Positions 39,534 through 61,767 of a stretch of DNA of 64,000 nt are shown here, one piece after another. The position numbers and the translations under genes are program-made. Location of the stretch: positions 5,458-69,457 of the forward strand of contig JBBIOV010000003.1 of the NCBI GenBank assembly GCA_037443185.1, read 5' to 3'. The notes below the pieces were generated by a model. It saw only the letters and a list, made by a program, of their open reading frames with translations. It was not told the DNA's origin and searched no databases. Origin of the DNA: a bacterium (GTDB lineage Bacteria > Patescibacteriota > Minisyncoccia > 2-01-FULL-47-10 > JBBIMT01). Each line of letters starts with the position of its first letter. The first letter of the stretch is position 1.

Positions 39534-39604
39534 CGGGACATAGTATAATGGTAGTACGCATCCTTCGGGAGGATGTAGTCCCAGTTCGAATCTGGGTGTC
39601 CCGA
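39534..39604 (+). tRNA. tRNA-Pro (anticodon CGG)
   Basis: Cloverleaf with a perfect 7-bp acceptor stem cgggaca/tgtcccg, an anticodon stem catcc/ggatg with loop ttCGGga, a T arm cccag-TTCGAAT-ctggg and discriminator A. C1:G72 is a bacterial tRNA-Pro identity feature. CCA is not encoded. Confidence 0.8.
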
Positions 39605-44648: not shown

Positions 44649-44796
44649 TGACTCCCTCCTTTTATTCGCTTACTTAAGCCAAAAATTTAAAGTACCAACC
44701 TCTTTATTTTTCTTTAATATAACATAAAATTATTTTTAAGTCAATAATCTTAAATTTGGCAAATGCCTTGAAATTGGTTTTTGCAAAATTAAGCTG

Positions 44797-45164
44797 TGGA
44801 CGCGGAGGGAATCGAACCCTCGTGAGAATAAAACTTCTACAAAGGTTTAGCAGGTTTAGTTGATTTTTAATCTCGCTTTAACAGTAAAAAATCAACAAAA
44901 TCTGCTAAAGCAAAGTCAAGTTTGACTTGACGACAGATCTAAGAATTTCGGAAAAAGACAAGATCAGTTTCTTTTTCCTATCCCCGTCCCTACTTTATTT
45001 TCTCTACGGAGACTTGAGAAAATAAAGCCTCGGTTCTTAAGCGAACGCGAAGGAAGGTGCAAAGGTGTTCACACTTTTTTTGCTAAATTTTTTTAACGAA
45101 GCCTTTAGCCGCTCCGACCTGCCCGATTGTAAAAGATCTATCCTTCAAATCCAAGAACGCGCCC
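44797..45164 (-). ncRNA. ssrA: tmRNA (ssrA), ~368 nt
   Basis: The minus-strand RNA begins GGGCGCGUUCUUGGAUUUGAAGG (tRNA-like 5' end) and ends ..CGAGGGUUCGAUUCCCUCCGCGUCCA (T-arm GAGGG-UUCGAUU-CCCUC plus acceptor). The 5' GGGCGCG pairs with the 3' CGCGUCC. An internal tag-like frame ..AAA AAA AGU GUG AAC ACC UUU GCA CCU UCC UUC GCG UUC GCU UAA reads ..KKSVNTFAPSFAFA*. It lies immediately downstream of smpB. Confidence 0.8.
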
Positions 45165-53023: not shown

Positions 53024-54625
53024 CTATGGAATTGTGCCTGCTGGGACATTACCCCAGGTTTCTATCCCGTTTATTTCTGTCCGAACATTGCGGAGTCTGT
53101 ACCCTGCAACTTTTGAACAAGAGAAAATGTTTTCTCCAATCATCTGACAAGTATTTTCATAATTGGCTTTTTGCCCTTGATTCGGATTAACCGAATCAAA
53201 CTGGACTAAAACCAACCAATACACCCTAATACCCTGTAAGCATAATTTGACAACAAGCTCGCCGGCTCGATAAGCGCTACCTTGCTCAGATAGCTTAATA
53301 ACCGGAACAAGGTAGGTGCCTTTATTGGTTTTGGTCAGGCCGTCTAGACAATCAGCTTGATAAGGCTGACTCTTGTTTTTGTTAAAACATCCAAGATCCC
53401 GAATACAAATTCCACCTTCTCCCATTGTTAGAAAATCATAAATCTTAAAAAACCTACTTAAAAATCTATCCAAGATGGCAATTTGGTTGCCAAATTGGAT
53501 TTCAAGGTCGTTGAATTGTAAGTTGAACTGGAGGGCGTATTCTCGTATCGCCCGACGCAGTTGAGCTAACTCATCATTGAGCCTAATAATTTCGGCTCTA
53601 TCGAGCTCGACTTTGCTTGATAATTCTTTAATCTCTGTCAAAATGCCAGAAATTTTAGAATTAATCAAACCGATTTGCCTGTCAAGTTCGTTAAGCCGAC
53701 TATTCTGAACTTTGTTATACTCAAGGGCCAAATTAGCACTCGTTTGCGCCGTTTGCGCAAGCGACTTAGCCTCGCTTGCTGTAGCACTAACAGTTGTTGC
53801 CAACTGCTTAGCGCTTTCAGCAATATCTTTGACGCCATTAAAGGCGCCAAGAAGATAGAGGACACCGCTAAAAGCTAACAATCCGATAAGAGAAAGAAGC
53901 CAAATAACTTTCTTGTCCCACCCGTGATCATTACTTCTGTCTCTACTATCATCAATAGATGTTCCTTCTGTTTGTGCAGCGCTAGAGACTACTTTATGTA
54001 TTTCTCCTATTTTCTCAGCAAGGCCGTCAATCTTTTGACCTTGCTTATTGATAGCTTCAGAAAGAGGCTTGATAGCCTCTTTAAAACCCTCTCCAATGAT
54101 TTTTCCAAGTTTGTCAAGTTGCCCAAAGTCATCATCTTCGGTAGTTTCGGTCGCCGGTATCTCAGGATGCTGCGCATACCGCTTCTGCATTTCCTCTTGC
54201 GTGGCTTTTTCTAGGTTAGTTGCAGCAACAGTTTTGTCGACTTCTTTCAACTTTTCCTCCTTTTGTTTAATTAACTTCATTCGTTGCCTTGGATTTTCTA
54301 AAAGTCTTTTTTGGCTCTTGGTTAGTCTCTTGGTTAGTTGAGTTGATGATCGTGCTTGTGACGAGCTAACGCCTTTCTCAAAAAACTCAGCAGAGTGGGC
54401 GACTCGTTTAAAATTATCCAAATGAAGCCTTAGAGTATCTAATTGACATTCTGAAATTTCTTGGTCATTTGGGAGATAAACGTGAGTCCTGAACCCTTTC
54501 TTTTTGGCTTCATCGATAATGCGCTGATACTCAGAAATCTGCTCAATTATCTTTTTTTTCTCTTCCTTTTCTTTTGATTCATTCTTATATTCCGTTTTGT
54601 CTTGATTCATAATAATATTGTTCAT
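53024..54625 (-). CDS. Hypothetical bitopic membrane protein of anomalously high GC (~45-50%). It has an N-terminal cytoplasmic K/E-rich coiled coil, one TM, an extracytoplasmic coiled coil and a Cys-containing C-terminal globular domain.
   Basis: 533-aa ORF with a strong SD (aaggaggaaagg-ATG). One TM (VIWLLSLIGLLAFSGVLYLLGAF) at ~aa 240. Heptad repeats flank the TM. The C-terminal ~150 aa carry six Cys (GGICIRDLGCF...ADCLDG...KLCLQG...NTCQMIGENIFSCSK). No recognisable family. Sampled 60-nt windows give 50% GC against 25% in the neighbours. Confidence 0.5.
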   Translation of the reverse strand: MNNIIMNQDKTEYKNESKEKEEKKKIIEQISEYQRIIDEAKKKGFRTHVYLPNDQEISECQLDTLRLHLDNFKRVAHSAEFFEKGVSSSQARSSTQLTKRLTKSQKRLLENPRQRMKLIKQKEEKLKEVDKTVAATNLEKATQEEMQKRYAQHPEIPATETTEDDDFGQLDKLGKIIGEGFKEAIKPLSEAINKQGQKIDGLAEKIGEIHKVVSSAAQTEGTSIDDSRDRSNDHGWDKKVIWLLSLIGLLAFSGVLYLLGAFNGVKDIAESAKQLATTVSATASEAKSLAQTAQTSANLALEYNKVQNSRLNELDRQIGLINSKISGILTEIKELSSKVELDRAEIIRLNDELAQLRRAIREYALQFNLQFNDLEIQFGNQIAILDRFLSRFFKIYDFLTMGEGGICIRDLGCFNKNKSQPYQADCLDGLTKTNKGTYLVPVIKLSEQGSAYRAGELVVKLCLQGIRVYWLVLVQFDSVNPNQGQKANYENTCQMIGENIFSCSKVAGYRLRNVRTEINGIETWGNVPAGTIP

Positions 54626-57356: not shown

Positions 57357-57755
57357 TTAATGAAAGTTTAACTTCAGTTGGTATAAAATAGCTTTGGCTT
57401 TTTTAATGTCTTCTTGCATCTTTGCTTTTAATTTTTCTTCAGAATCAAATTTTTTTATATTGCTGACTTTTGCTATTAAATTCAAAAAAACTTTTTTACC
57501 ATAAATATCTTTGTCAAAATTAAAAATATATGTTTCTATTGTAGTTTTTTTTTCGTTGAAAGTTTCGTTTCTTCCAATGCTGGTGGCACTATTATAAAAA
57601 ACTCCATCTATTTCTATAATAGAAGCATAAACTCCTGATTCTAACCCAGTTTTTTCAAAAGATGATTTCTCTGGCTCAATATTGGCGGTTGGAAATCCTA
57701 ATTTTTTACCGCGCCCTTTTCCTTTAATTATAATGCCCTCAATAATATTATTCAT
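57357..57755 (-). CDS. Riboflavin kinase (monofunctional RibF C-terminal-domain type)
   Basis: IEGIIIKGKGRGKKLGFPTANIEP..SGVYASIIEIDGVFYNSATSIGRNETF....IETYIFNFDKDIYGKKVFLNLIAKVSNIKKFDSEEKLKAKMQEDI. Confidence 0.65.
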   Translation of the reverse strand: MNNIIEGIIIKGKGRGKKLGFPTANIEPEKSSFEKTGLESGVYASIIEIDGVFYNSATSIGRNETFNEKKTTIETYIFNFDKDIYGKKVFLNLIAKVSNIKKFDSEEKLKAKMQEDIKKAKAILYQLKLNFH

Positions 57756-57996
57756 TTTGCAAAGCCTCCAAATACCATTTTAAATTTAAACTATCAAAAG
57801 CCAATTTGAAATAATTGGCATTATCAGTAACTTCAAGATAATAAATCACATTTTCTCCTTCACGTTTTTTATAAAATAATTCAATTTTATTAATGTGATA
57901 GCAATAACCGTTTAAATAAAAATATCTTGGCTTAATTAGCCCCTTTGGCTCAAACTCAACGAAAACTTTTATTGGCTGATGTAATTGTTGAAACAT
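57748..57996 (-). CDS. Small hypothetical protein overlapping the riboflavin kinase start by 8 nt
   Basis: 82-aa ORF co-directional with ribF, with a 4-8 nt overlap suggesting translational coupling. No domain recognised. Confidence 0.3.
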   Translation of the reverse strand: MFQQLHQPIKVFVEFEPKGLIKPRYFYLNGYCYHINKIELFYKKREGENVIYYLEVTDNANYFKLAFDSLNLKWYLEALQNE

Positions 57997-58138: not shown

Positions 58139-58753
58139 TTAATACTTTCTAAAAACTGCTCTAACGACTCCTTGAATATCTGCTTTTCTAACAAAGATAG
58201 GTTCCATTGAAGGATTTTCTGGTTGAAGTCTGATTAGTTTTCTTTTTAAATCAATATGGATTGTTTTTAAAGTAACTCTATCTTCTCCAATACGAGCAAC
58301 AACAACTTCTCCGTTTCTTGGTAAAACATTTTTCTCGCAAATAATAAAATCTCCATCAAAAATACCAGCATTTATCATTGAGTCTCCTTGAACTCTTAAA
58401 ACAAAATAATCTCTTTCTGGAGATAGCCCTAAATCTTGGGGTAAGGTAATAGTTTCTTGTTGTTCGTACATTGTTAAAGGATGTCCTGCCCGTACCTCTC
58501 CAACAAGTGATAAAGTCCAAGAAGCGCCTGAACGATAAAATTTCTCAGAGATAGTTATAAGTCCTGTTATTTTATCTTGAACAAGATAGCCTTTTTCTTT
58601 TAATCTTTTAATATGCTGCCAAATAGTAGCCGGAGAAGATAATCCTATTTCGCGACCTATTTGACGATAACTAGGAACATAGCCGTTTTCTTCTATGCAT
58701 CTTACAATAATATCTAAAATTCTTTTTTGTTTTTGGGTTAATGGCGCAAGCAT
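58139..58753 (-). CDS. lexA: LexA repressor (S24 peptidase)
   Basis: N-terminal wHTH (MLAPLTQKQKRILDIIVRCIEENGYVPSYRQIGREIGLSSPATIWQHIKRLKEKGYL), the Ala-Gly cleavage region (VRAGHP), and catalytic GDSM and ..VVARIGEDRVTLK. The start is set at MLAPL. Confidence 0.85.
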   Translation of the reverse strand: MLAPLTQKQKRILDIIVRCIEENGYVPSYRQIGREIGLSSPATIWQHIKRLKEKGYLVQDKITGLITISEKFYRSGASWTLSLVGEVRAGHPLTMYEQQETITLPQDLGLSPERDYFVLRVQGDSMINAGIFDGDFIICEKNVLPRNGEVVVARIGEDRVTLKTIHIDLKRKLIRLQPENPSMEPIFVRKADIQGVVRAVFRKY

Positions 58754-58939
58754 ATTTTCATTTGATTTACTGTATTGTTGGTTTATCAAATAAAAGTATA
58801 AGCGAACAAAAAACGAATGTCAAGATTGTTGACCTTCCTTTTTAAAAAAGTCCACAAAAGACTGAATCTAAAAGAAAACAAAATCCTCTTTTAGGAGATC
58901 GGATTTGATATGAACAATATATTATTTAAAAATATTATC

Positions 58940-60289
58940 TTATTTAAAACTATCACCAATCCGCTTTTTTAAAGGATTAATTAGAAATTTCTTTAAATCG
59001 CGTCTTCCTATTAAAACAGGATATTTTTGGTCTGAACGGTCAATAATGGAAGCGTAAGAATCTATCCTTTCTCCGGCTAAAATAAAAGAAATTGGGAAAA
59101 AAGCCCTCTCTTGTTCCCCTAAAGCAGAACTTACTTTTTTTATTTTTACCAGTTCAGCTTCATTTAATATAGCGTCTGTGATTTTTAATTTTTTTGCAAG
59201 ACGTTCGTCAATAGAAGTAGAGTAGGCACCGGTATCTATTTTAGCTCTTGTTAAATATTCTTTATTGTCTGGTGTGATAATTTTAATTGTTTCAAAAACC
59301 CCAATTATTTTTTGTCCCGACACTTCTTCTAAAATTTCCCAAATTTCACCGCCAAAAAGATTTTGTCCAATTGCCACGCCTTTGGCAATAGAATCAATTT
59401 CCAATTCCTCTAATCTTTTTAATCTATCCTTTAAACCTGCAAGATTGGCAAGTTGAATTGAAAGTCCGGGTCGAGCATTGATTTCTAAAACCTTTGGGCC
59501 CTGTTCTTTATCAATTACTATATCAATTCCCGCAAAACCAAGTCCTATTGCCCTTTGGGCTTTTACAGCCAGTGTTAAAATATCTTGCCAATAAGGAATT
59601 CTAATTCCAGATAAAATTAACCTTTTCCCTGGTAAAAATTTAATAAACTTTTTTTTACCATAAATAGCAGTTGTGGTCACTCCGTTAGCTAAATCAATGC
59701 CCACTCCTACCGCGCCCAAAGCCAAATTGGCTTTACCCTCTGATTCTTTGGTAGGCAGTCTTAACATTGTCATTACTGGAACTGAATTGAATACAATCAC
59801 TCTTATGTCGGGAATACCGCGGAAACTATATAGTTTTAAAAAATGGTGTATTTTAACTCGCTCTTCAATCAAAACAACATCAGGACTATTTCCTAATGAA
59901 AAGTTTCCTTCTAGGATATTAAAACAATGTTCTTTAAGTAAGTTCTCATAAACTAATTTGCCATCGGCTTTAATCCAAGCATTTTGAGGTATATTTTTTT
60001 TTCCAAACAAAATAAGTACTCCCGCTCCCGCCCAGCCGCGGTTTGGTTTAATAACAAAGCTTTTAGGAAGAGAGTTCCAGTTAAAATTACCCAATTCATT
60101 AATTGATTTAATAGTAGCAAAAGTTTTAGCTGTTGGAATTTTGTTTTCTTCTAAAACTTTTTTTGTCAAGATTTTGTTATCGGCTATTTGTTTGGCGCGT
60201 TTTGAGTTAAAAGGATAAATATAATGCAAATTGCGAGCGTTCATTCCAAGAACTTTTTGACTTTTTTTTAAAAATCTTAATAATTTCAT
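58940..60289 (-). CDS. RimK-like ATP-grasp amidoligase fused to a C-terminal retropepsin-like aspartyl protease (DUF785/COG4067 type)
   Basis: The N-terminus GMNARNLHYIYPFNSKRAKQIADNKILTK...FVIKPNRGWAGAGVLIL.. is the alpha-L-glutamate-ligase-related ATP-grasp pattern. The C-terminal ~130 aa contain TRAKIDTGAYSTSIDERLAKKL...YPVLIGRRDL with a DTGA catalytic motif. Confidence 0.6.
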   Translation of the reverse strand: MKLLRFLKKSQKVLGMNARNLHYIYPFNSKRAKQIADNKILTKKVLEENKIPTAKTFATIKSINELGNFNWNSLPKSFVIKPNRGWAGAGVLILFGKKNIPQNAWIKADGKLVYENLLKEHCFNILEGNFSLGNSPDVVLIEERVKIHHFLKLYSFRGIPDIRVIVFNSVPVMTMLRLPTKESEGKANLALGAVGVGIDLANGVTTTAIYGKKKFIKFLPGKRLILSGIRIPYWQDILTLAVKAQRAIGLGFAGIDIVIDKEQGPKVLEINARPGLSIQLANLAGLKDRLKRLEELEIDSIAKGVAIGQNLFGGEIWEILEEVSGQKIIGVFETIKIITPDNKEYLTRAKIDTGAYSTSIDERLAKKLKITDAILNEAELVKIKKVSSALGEQERAFFPISFILAGERIDSYASIIDRSDQKYPVLIGRRDLKKFLINPLKKRIGDSFK

Positions 60290-60336
60290 TGTATTTTTTA
60301 TTTACTGAATCTTAGATTTTTTTTATAAAATAATAT

Positions 60337-60975
60337 TCATTTATTAATAATTTGGAAAAATCTAATATATTCTAAAATCCTTAAACCTGACCATTTACCC
60401 AGCAACAAAGTTAAAAGCAAAGAGATAATTATTACCGCCGGGTAGTTTGTCATTATGAATTCTTGGAAAAACTGCCAAGAAATTAGGAAAAATCCCGTTA
60501 ACGATATCAATAAAGTTTCGGCAGTTAATATTACAGATGTCTTTAAATCTTGCTCTATTTGAACAGCAGCTAATTTTTCAGCAAATACCACAATTGATAA
60601 CATTGCCAAAATTGAAGATTTAAAGTTAAAAGAAAAAAATAGAGGCGCACTTAAAAAAATTAAAAATAAAGAAGAAATTGCAAGTGATAATATAAAAGCA
60701 ATTCTCGGAAAATAAAGTATTCTTATGTCTTTTAAAAGATAACGAATTAAGGAAGTTATAATCGTTGTCAAAACGATAATATATGTCCCGCTAGCAAACC
60801 CTAATTTTAAAAGCCCAAAAATCATTAAAAGAGGTACGAAAATTCCAAATCCTCTTAATCCAATAATCTGCCTAGAAAAAGTAATGATTAAGATTAAAAC
60901 TGGTGCTGCAAGCAAAATAATTAAATCTTGCTGACTTAAACCTTGATTGATTAAATATTGGAAAATATTATCCAT
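60337..60975 (-). CDS. Seven-TM membrane protein partnered with the ATP-grasp/protease gene
   Basis: 212 aa with seven hydrophobic helices. It is co-directional with the ATP-grasp gene and 47 nt upstream of it. Confidence 0.45.
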   Translation of the reverse strand: MDNIFQYLINQGLSQQDLIILLAAPVLILIITFSRQIIGLRGFGIFVPLLMIFGLLKLGFASGTYIIVLTTIITSLIRYLLKDIRILYFPRIAFILSLAISSLFLIFLSAPLFFSFNFKSSILAMLSIVVFAEKLAAVQIEQDLKTSVILTAETLLISLTGFFLISWQFFQEFIMTNYPAVIIISLLLTLLLGKWSGLRILEYIRFFQIINK

Positions 60976-61031
60976 AGTTTTTCAATTTTCAATTTTTTTA
61001 AATTAAGACTTTATACAAAATTGAAAATTGA

Positions 61032-61511
61032 TTACTGAAAATGCTTATTATTAAATATATGGGCAATCGCTATAGCCAAAGCATCAGCCGCATCGTCTTG
61101 CTTTGGTATCACTTCATTCTTAAAAATTTGTTTTAACATATAATATATTTGTTTTTTATCTGCTTTACCATAGCCGGTTAAAGATTGTTTCACCTGTAAA
61201 GGAGTATAAAAAGATATTTTAATTTTATTTTCGGTTAATATGTATTTTAGTGCTCCAACAATTTCGGAAATATTAAGGGCAGTTTTTTTGTTCTTAAAAA
61301 AGAAAACTTTTTCTAAAGCTGCTTCATTGGGCTTAAACTTTTTAACGATTTCCTGTATTTTTAAACCAACTAAATAAAGTCTCATTTCTGGGGTAAAATC
61401 TTTGGGCGTTTCAATTAATCCTGTTTCGATAATATTAACCAAACGGCTATTTTGCTTAACAATGGCAAAACCGCATCTATCAAATCCCGGATCTATCCCT
61501 AAAATAATCAT
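61032..61511 (-). CDS. ruvC: Crossover junction endodeoxyribonuclease RuvC
   Basis: MIILGIDPGFDRCGFAIV... and ..DAADALAIAIAHI, with the catalytic acidic residues in place. The start is set at MIILGIDPG. Confidence 0.85.
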   Translation of the reverse strand: MIILGIDPGFDRCGFAIVKQNSRLVNIIETGLIETPKDFTPEMRLYLVGLKIQEIVKKFKPNEAALEKVFFFKNKKTALNISEIVGALKYILTENKIKISFYTPLQVKQSLTGYGKADKKQIYYMLKQIFKNEVIPKQDDAADALAIAIAHIFNNKHFQ

Positions 61512-61767
61512 AAAAGATAAAAAATTTGTGGTGTTTTTATTTGTATAAATTCTAGTCAAAAAATATAAAAAGATTTATGATTTATTAATTTTTTAGTCTT
61601 TAATTGAGTATTTTAAATAGTTAGACTGTTAAATAAAAAATCAATTTTTCATAATTTTTTTGACCTTTATCCTTTACTACTTTTTATTTTAAAAATTTCT
61701 TTATTAAGGATTAATAGTAGATAAAACACGCAAGTTGATAACCTAAATTAGCATCACTGATATTTAT

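Follow-up and report, generated by a model that had tools for sequence, protein, structure and literature searches.

What is accomplished by a gene pair in which a seven-transmembrane (7TM) protein stands next to a single polypeptide combining an ATP-grasp ligase with a retropepsin-like protease? The question is raised by two adjacent genes in a 64,000-nucleotide stretch of contig JBBIOV010000003.1 from a patescibacterial genome (GCA_037443185.1), hereafter the window, to which all position numbers refer; the whole module, together with its neighbours lexA and ruvC, lies on the minus strand. The answer we favour, with a probability of about one half, is that the pair is an Rlo/Rim-related system pared down to two genes, in which a membrane-docked cytoplasmic enzyme pair would build and trim acidic chains of the polyglutamate type. 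Rather than a new kind of system, it is an undescribed variant of the known Rlo/Rim class, set apart by the switch of its protease topology from periplasmic to cytoplasmic; sequence databases already contain the fusion in abundance, where it has gone unremarked. The module is not a chance feature, because its open reading frames (ORFs) are long, its profile matches strong and its homologues counted in thousands. The two genes are co-directional and separated by a spacer of 47 nucleotides:

60337 to 60975, minus strand: 7TM gene, 212 amino acids (aa), homologue of the C-terminal 7TM module of RloB, without the ectodomain.
58940 to 60289, minus strand: fusion gene, 449 aa, encoding an ATP-grasp ligase, an acidic linker and a retropepsin-like protease, in that order.

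The fusion protein has neither a signal peptide nor a transmembrane segment (maximum 19-residue hydropathy of 1.33), and the whole of it is therefore cytoplasmic. Its AlphaFold2 model, with a predicted local distance difference test score (pLDDT) of 82.8, displays two domains and a disordered linker at residues 315–323:

59354 to 60289, minus strand: ATP-grasp ligase domain, residues 1–312, of the RloC/TIGR02291/PF14397 type, from profile and fold matches.
59315 to 59353, minus strand: acidic inter-domain linker, residues 313–325, GGEIWEILEEVSG (family consensus GGEIEEELEEISG), with low pLDDT at 315–323.
58943 to 59314, minus strand: retropepsin-like aspartic protease domain, residues 326–449, of the PF05618 RimB/RloA family, from profile and motif matches.

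The ligase domain matches PF14397 (ATPgrasp_ST) over residues 19–294 (E=2e-62, 211 bits against a cut-off of 31.4) and, end to end, the alpha-L-glutamate ligase-like model TIGR02291 (residues 10–313 on model positions 9–314 of 317, E=2e-77), a family of which we take RloC of Pseudomonas aeruginosa to be a member. It contains the ATP-binding lysines K39 and K81 (the codon of the latter at 60047–60049), the glycine-rich loop KPNRGWAGAG, E142–E143, R163 and N188, as well as the magnesium ligands D256, E269 and N271 (59477–59524). Among solved structures, Foldseek ranked ArgX/LysX, RimK, the cyanophycin synthetase CphA1 and Ddl best (E~1e-10), the ArgX/LysX structures matched being 3VPB, 3VPD and 5K2M (E~1e-10, template modelling score to target of ~0.6). 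An hhalign comparison with E. coli RimK (probability 94.7%) covers RimK residues 85–268 and includes all catalytic residues; it equates K39 with K100, K81 with K141 and the segment GIDIV..LEINARPG with GVDIL..MEVNASPG, and brings DIR and N188 into register. We then scanned GTDB species, each represented by a single genome; at least 586 related stretches were confirmed, and the best 80 loci underlie all counts out of 80 given here. In these loci, K81, N188, D256, E269 and N271 are each invariant (80/80), and all of the ATP-grasp catalytic residues listed above are kept in 74–80 cases.

The protease domain belongs to PF05618 (residues 372–444; 28.9 bits within the whole protein and 34.5 when the domain is taken alone, cut-off 27), a RimB-like family historically misnamed 'Zn_protease', and each of 16 protease domain sequences of this kind matches the same model. 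The catalytic D352-T-G-A occupies residues 352–355 (59225–59236), and an IGRRD motif follows at 427–431. A one-sequence search of the PDB with this domain gave a weak result (E=0.003), and a profile of the 16 domains was used instead. The profile matched 9G58 (6.7e-11), 9G59 (7.4e-10), Legionella 2PMA (2.6e-6), the retropepsin Ddi1 (7e-5) and Rickettsia ApRick (0.03), the first two being crystal structures of RloA orthologues (PMC12239564). The alignment spacing in 9G58 (D28, K26, R94 and R117) reproduces the published RloA numbering (D48, K46, R114 and R137), so that K350, R395 and R418 of the window protein are the equivalents of RloA K46, R114 and R137. In RloA, mutation of R114, R137, K46 or D48 abolishes both polyglutamate cleavage and complementation (PMC12239564). 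These positions are maintained across the 80 loci: D352 in 80, T353 in 79 (with one serine), G354 in 80, K or R at position 350 in 80, R395 in 76 and R418 in 79.

Between the two domains, E315, E318 and E321 of the linker are near-invariant among 31 homologues. The isoelectric point is 4.05 for the linker region (residues 296–326), as opposed to 10.0 and 9.6 for the two catalytic domains, and the basic character of both domains is consistent with acidic substrates. We also observe that this glutamate-rich, disordered linker stands just ahead of a protease domain the relatives of which cleave polyglutamate. Its use as a pseudo-substrate or self-cleavage site would be pure speculation.

The 7TM protein has a sole Pfam match, PF14402 (7TM_transglut; E=2.9e-17, residues 15–208 on model positions 52–246 of 248), and aligns with the NCBIfam RloB model NF052267 over positions 310–506 of 508 only (36 bits against a cut-off of 900). 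Some 14 residues precede its first transmembrane helix, and the N-terminal inactive transglutaminase domain of the RloB type is absent. Hydropathy and the positive-inside count place its N terminus outside and its C terminus inside, with ~12 lysines and arginines on the inside loops and tail versus 2 outside. The AlphaFold2 model, built with 29 homologues (pLDDT 88, predicted template modelling score 0.81), comprises seven transmembrane helices plus short terminal helices; no solved relative of this fold was found, and similarity to known transporters was not detectable. Conserved charged or polar residues, membrane-embedded or interfacial, include R35 and R41 (SRQxxGLRGFG), P90–R91, E133, Q139 and E153 (TAET). 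The cytoplasmic tail also carries a conserved motif:

60358 to 60387, minus strand: C-tail motif G197-L-R-x-x-E-x-x-R-F206 (GLRxxExxRF) of the 7TM protein, cytoplasmic, a candidate docking site.

Within 29–32 homologues, G197, L198, R199, E202 and F206 of this motif are invariant and R205 is near-invariant, and we consider the motif a candidate site for docking of the ligase. Three distant 7TM homologues (P0161–P0163) end in -EE or -EEEE, resembling the RpsF tail extended by RimK; most other homologues have no such ends, and the window protein terminates in -IINK.

Overall, the anatomy is that proposed in an earlier note made from this DNA sequence, which had described a 7TM partner without any extra soluble domain, an ATP-grasp related to alpha-L-glutamate ligases and a DTGA-bearing protease fused to the C terminus of the ligase. 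Each of these points is confirmed, as are the retropepsin fold of the C-terminal domain, through RloA structures and Ddi1, and the integrity of the ATP-grasp active site.

The same note regarded the fused, minimal form as notable for a reduced genome. On the contrary, it is the usual architecture of Patescibacteria. A word-indexed protein search with the fusion returned 5992 relatives; the best 120 of these are all 435–481 aa long, and the precomputed Pfam annotation assigns both PF14397 and PF05618 to nearly every one of them. The relatives are listed under Moranbacteria, Parcubacteria and Patescibacteria, and the proteins mostly as 'sugar-transfer associated ATP-grasp' or 'RimK/LysX family'. 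All of the 80 loci encode the ligase–protease fusion. They come from Moran-, Pacei-, Parcu-, Dojka/WS6-, Woese-, Levy- and Kerfeld-bacteria and from Microgenomates, and some bear evidently automatic labels such as 'Bdellovibrionales', yet with the context unchanged. The pairing with the 7TM gene is obligate: it stands directly upstream of the fusion gene in 77/80 loci, and two of the remaining three have no upstream DNA. In relatives, the 7TM stop codon and the fusion start codon often overlap or lie within a few nucleotides of each other.

Around this constant core, several sister architectures occur. Most 7TM partners (62/77) are 7TM-only proteins of at most 250 aa, as in the window, while seven are 522–559 aa long, and the four of these that were tested all possess an N-terminal extracellular PKD domain, not a transglutaminase. 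At one locus (L055:4272-6341), a single 690-aa ORF contains 7TM, ATP-grasp and retropepsin; either the fusion is real, in which case it would support a ligase docked on the C-tail of the 7TM protein, or one base of the assembly is wrong. At two others (L070:4983-7256 and L076:4998-7400), the fusion is extended by a metallopeptidase domain of the MATCAP family (PF08014, HEIETH), giving three-enzyme polypeptides of 758–801 aa in which the retropepsin is kept (DTGE, IGRRDL) and the 7TM partner has a PKD ectodomain. One locus (L056) has an additional stand-alone PF05618 gene. In more than half of the 80 loci, one to three stand-alone RimK-like ATP-grasp genes, some with a Rimk_N domain, come right after the fusion (examples are L001:7396-12926, L019:6392-10888 and L034:6405-11395), and a class A penicillin-binding protein (PBP) is encoded 1–4.5 kb downstream on the same strand in 36/80. 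Neither the extra ligases nor the PBP occur in the window or in its two closest relatives (L007 and L008, 82–83% identity), and we therefore regard the form in the window as the minimal one.

How does this module compare with systems of known function? The triad of ligase, 7TM protein and protease was reportedly first predicted and linked in computational work by Iyer et al. in 2009. The earlier note considered the function of such a system experimentally unknown, a statement overtaken in 2025 by the characterization of RloABC (PMC12239564) and of RimK/RimB with the RimBK hybrid (PMC11957791). Specifically, the P. aeruginosa operon received the name rloABC from Lormand et al. (mBio 2025), who found its RloA retropepsins to be secreted, dimeric enzymes that cut runs of at least eight glutamates. 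Mutants lacking all three proteases cannot cope with hypo-osmotic medium and are impaired in shape, biofilm and tolerance of beta-lactams, and these defects are suppressed when rloB or rloC is deleted (PMC12239564). This suppression implies that the protease removes a product of the ligase and the 7TM protein. Little et al. (JBC 2025) showed that RimB, a cytoplasmic endopeptidase of the retropepsin-like type, trims polyglutamylated RpsF and also stimulates the synthesis of poly-alpha-glutamate by RimK, and that a natural RimB–RimK hybrid, RimBK of D. psychrophila (DP2392), with the protease at its N terminus (RimB residues 1–163), is proteolytically active (PMC11957791). Beyond these two studies, our literature searches, including those on PF14402/PF14397, on RloC follow-ups and on bacterial MATCAP with ATP-grasp, yielded no account of a ligase-then-protease fusion, of a 7TM-only partner or of a distribution in Patescibacteria.

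With RloABC, the module shares the same three protein families, encoded together, adjacent and co-directional, and the catalytic D-T-G and polyglutamate-binding K/R residues of the protease. By contrast, it consists of two genes instead of three and is hosted by Patescibacteria instead of Gammaproteobacteria. Its protease is fused behind the cytoplasmic ATP-grasp, at the C terminus of the ligase, whereas RloA is secreted, and the RloA hallmark of a stand-alone protein of ~160–180 aa with an N-terminal signal peptide is absent; its 7TM protein has no counterpart of the periplasmic inactive-transglutaminase domain of RloB. None of the scores reaches the NCBIfam equivalog cut-off of RloA, RloB or TIGR02291, the models of RloA1–3 (NF052262-4) giving 16–31 bits against cut-offs of 210–280. 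With RimK, RimB and RimBK, the module shares a cytoplasmic ATP-grasp domain of the glutamate ligase type paired or fused with a retropepsin-like endopeptidase. Here too the differences are substantial: the protease is N-terminal in RimBK but C-terminal in the window fusion, the ligase resembles RloC more than RimK, the 7TM partner is obligate, and a link to RpsF has been shown for Rim only. As for LysX/ArgX, the best structural matches of the ATP-grasp domain, these enzymes ligate to the C-terminal glutamate of a carrier, LysW, but no LysW-like carrier gene lies near the module, TIGR02144 scores only 31 bits and the genomic context is another. Finally, the likeness to the editing of tubulin tails in eukaryotes is a functional analogy only. 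There, ATP-grasp enzymes (TTL/TTLL) add C-terminal or side-chain amino acids (Tyr, Glu) that peptidases (MATCAP/CCP) remove, and in two relatives of the fusion (L070 and L076) the same polypeptide includes an HExxH domain of the MATCAP family, whereas the window protein has none and relies on an aspartic endopeptidase, not a metallocarboxypeptidase.

Under the polyglutamate-type reading that we favour, the 7TM protein, in effect the RloB membrane module minus its ectodomain, would keep the fusion enzyme on the inner side of the membrane. At the expense of ATP, the ATP-grasp domain would add amino acids, alpha-linked glutamate being the likeliest, either extending a free oligo- or polyglutamate or adding to the carboxyl end of an acceptor. 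Glutamate is suggested by the nearest characterized relatives of the ligase, which are alpha-L-glutamate ligases (260 bits for TIGR02291, 67 bits for the RimK family). Acting as a dimer, the retropepsin domain would cut the acidic chains endoproteolytically, thereby limiting their length, releasing them and keeping the ligase turning over, an interplay modelled on RimB acting for RimK. The 7TM partner might either pass a product or signal across the membrane or couple the enzyme to the state of the envelope. The MATCAP-bearing variants point to a cycle of adding and trimming peptide tails. This reading is further favoured by the conservation of both active sites in the 80 loci and in 31 homologues, by the retained counterparts of the RloA residues needed for polyglutamate cleavage, by the basic character of both domains, by the stimulation of RimK by RimB, by the Pseudomonas suppressor genetics and by the close pairing of the 7TM and fusion genes. 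A bolder version, which we hold to be quite unlikely, would make the module a near-universal, membrane-coupled system for the reversible editing of peptide tails in Patescibacteria, a prokaryotic counterpart of TTL/TTLL–MATCAP that would work from the cytoplasmic side, its target being either a component of envelope biogenesis or an acidic peptide that is exported, with the linker gating the protease as pseudo-substrate or self-cleavage site.

Several observations weigh against the polyglutamate-type reading. The ATP-grasp domain scores under the curated cut-offs, with 260.2 bits against 314.2 for TIGR02291, 66.8 against 143.4 for the RimK family (TIGR00768) and 22.7 against 331 for the S6 ligase model (NF007764). 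The N-terminal ~85-aa part of RimK that precedes the ATP-grasp is unaligned in the hhalign comparison, and a conserved insert specific to the family occupies ligase residues 192–235. Given these three features, the amino-acid specificity of the ligase may differ. Furthermore, the logic of Rlo may not transfer, because the Pseudomonas protease is secreted and the one studied here is cytoplasmic. The D. psychrophila RimBK had protease activity but no detectable RpsF glutamylation (PMC11957791). Lastly, a search of the window for poly-E or EE-ending ORFs as candidate substrates found none.

The surroundings of the module, in a region of ~25–36% G+C, bear on the competing explanations. In the upstream direction, the same strand carries, in order towards the module, a partial ruvB, a 77-aa membrane ORF, a bPH_2 membrane protein gene, yebC and ruvC; downstream follow lexA, an 82-aa ORF, the riboflavin kinase gene, rmuC and a Gmad2/Germane gene. 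The immediate neighbours are these:

61032 to 61559, minus strand: ruvC, immediately upstream of the 7TM gene.
60982 to 61031, minus strand: A/T-only inverted repeat, perfect over 15 bp, arms TCAATTTTCAATTTT / AAAATTGAAAATTGA with a 20-nucleotide loop, filling the spacer between ruvC and the 7TM gene.
58139 to 58789, minus strand: lexA, immediately downstream of the fusion gene.

The lexA gene has a near-consensus promoter of its own (TTGACA-17-TATACT, 58823..58795). A 21-nucleotide block, TTGACATTCGTTTTTTGTTCG, at 58803–58823 spans the -35 hexamer and the spacer of this promoter; it is identical in the close relative L008 amid diverged spacer DNA and occurs once in the window. The block contains a TTCG-N7-TTCG direct repeat, not a GAAC-N4-GTTC palindrome, and is, judging from its sequence and position, a candidate autoregulatory LexA operator of unusual form. 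A literature search for LexA motifs of Patescibacteria found no paper on them.

Four other explanations can be envisioned for the module. Under the first of these, it would build a peptide of the envelope or cell wall: the ligase or ligases would assemble a peptide or polymer, the 7TM protein would translocate it to the surface and the protease would release it from a primer, the product being a peptidoglycan- or surface-associated modification. The class A PBP gene in 36/80 loci, the extra RimK-like ligase genes behind the fusion in more than half of them, the extracellular PKD domain on some 7TM partners and the conserved membrane-embedded charges of the 7TM protein (R35, E133 and E153) all fit this proposal, as do the cell-shape, beta-lactam and hypo-osmotic defects of Pseudomonas rlo mutants and the periplasmic location of the Pseudomonas protease (PMC12239564). 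Yet the PBP and the extra ligases are missing from the window and its closest relatives, the linkage to the PBP falls within a long mixed synteny block (ruvB-bPH-yebC-ruvC-...) and may be mere gene order, the 7TM protein has no detectable similarity to a known transporter, and the protease of the window sits on the cytoplasmic side. We thus view an envelope peptide builder, the foremost of the four alternatives, as possible but rather unlikely. A modifier of the ribosome, with the fusion adding and removing C-terminal glutamates on S6 (RpsF) to retune translation in the manner of RimK and RimB, appears improbable. It would employ the same two enzyme families, a RimBK hybrid exists, RimK is among the top structural matches, and two genes upstream of the module lies yebC, the gene of a translation-associated factor. 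Conversely, the ligase is RloC-like (260 bits for TIGR02291 versus 67 bits for the RimK family, cut-off 143), the order of domains is opposite to that of RimBK, the obligate pairing with a membrane protein (77/80) is no part of the Rim system, and rim and rlo are genetically separate in Pseudomonas (PMC12239564). RpsF itself is not encoded in the window.

Its placement between ruvC and lexA on one strand could also suggest a function linked to the SOS response or DNA repair, with co-regulation through either neighbour, and the earlier note had considered a link with lexA worth checking. Indeed, 51/80 loci have ruvC as the gene directly upstream of the 7TM gene, and we found no convincing intrinsic terminator between the fusion gene and lexA, so that transcription may read through into lexA. 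However, lexA was found within 5 kb of the module in none of the 80 loci; in L007 it is absent, with a tyrosyl-tRNA synthetase gene after the fusion instead, and in L008 an opposite-strand gene separates it from the fusion. With adjacency not conserved, lexA under its own promoter and a 21-nucleotide block found nowhere else in the window, and neither a shared motif upstream of the module nor a box of the GAAC-N4-GTTC type near it, we reject co-regulation with lexA. The adjacency of ruvC is best read as gene order and not function, since it is embedded in the long mixed synteny block and is missing in Microgenomates- and Dojkabacteria-type loci that retain the 7TM–fusion pair. Moreover, the module contains no DNA-related domain, and we give a role in the SOS response or DNA repair next to no credence. 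Equally far-fetched is a cluster akin to those for graspetides or other peptides made by the ribosome and modified after translation (RiPPs), or for defence, in which the ATP-grasp would modify a ribosomal peptide, the protease serve for maturation and the membrane protein for export or immunity. Some RiPP clusters do resemble such a set of an ATP-grasp, a protease and a membrane protein in general terms, but no ORF for a precursor peptide was found between or beside the two genes, the ligase falls outside the graspetide ligase families, PADLOC models of defence systems gave zero matches, and synteny beside housekeeping genes is conserved across very divergent Patescibacteria. This syntenic placement speaks for a core function rather than an accessory cluster.

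What, then, would a membrane-docked pair that builds and trims polyglutamate-type chains add to the Rlo/Rim class? Work published in 2025 connected these systems with osmotic tolerance, cell shape, antibiotic sensitivity and the modification of ribosomes. A core of one cytoplasmic ligase–protease polypeptide plus a 7TM membrane domain alone defines their minimal functional unit, and it offers biochemistry a simpler system of two proteins. The fusion also argues that ligase and protease share one target molecule at the inner face of the membrane. The module has been retained in some of the smallest bacterial genomes, as witnessed by the at least 586 related stretches in species-level genomes. 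Its sister architectures, with MATCAP, PKD, extra RimK-like ligases or an adjacent class A PBP, lead to concrete hypotheses on an envelope-linked cycle of adding and trimming peptides.

Several minor features complete the picture of the locus. The inverted repeat at the upstream boundary of the module is 100% complementary and ends 6 nucleotides ahead of the 7TM start codon; its RNA fold reaches -14.1 kcal/mol (z=-4.7), and 0/200 shuffles were as stable. The 15-nucleotide arm has no dispersed copies, its only exact copies in the window being the two arms themselves. The corresponding spacer holds a different hairpin in L008 and is only 18 nucleotides long, with no hairpin, in L007. The repeat may act as an attenuator, processing site or operator. 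A search of the window for paralogues and for a PBP1A found neither. Elsewhere in the window, a 533-aa ORF (53024–54625, minus strand) has no Pfam match, and the only Rfam matches above the gathering score are a transfer-messenger RNA gene (44794–45164, minus strand, 101 bits) and a tRNA gene (39534–39604, plus strand). The 82-aa ORF between lexA and the riboflavin kinase gene (57748–57996, minus strand), also without a Pfam match, has a syntenic 80-aa counterpart in L008.

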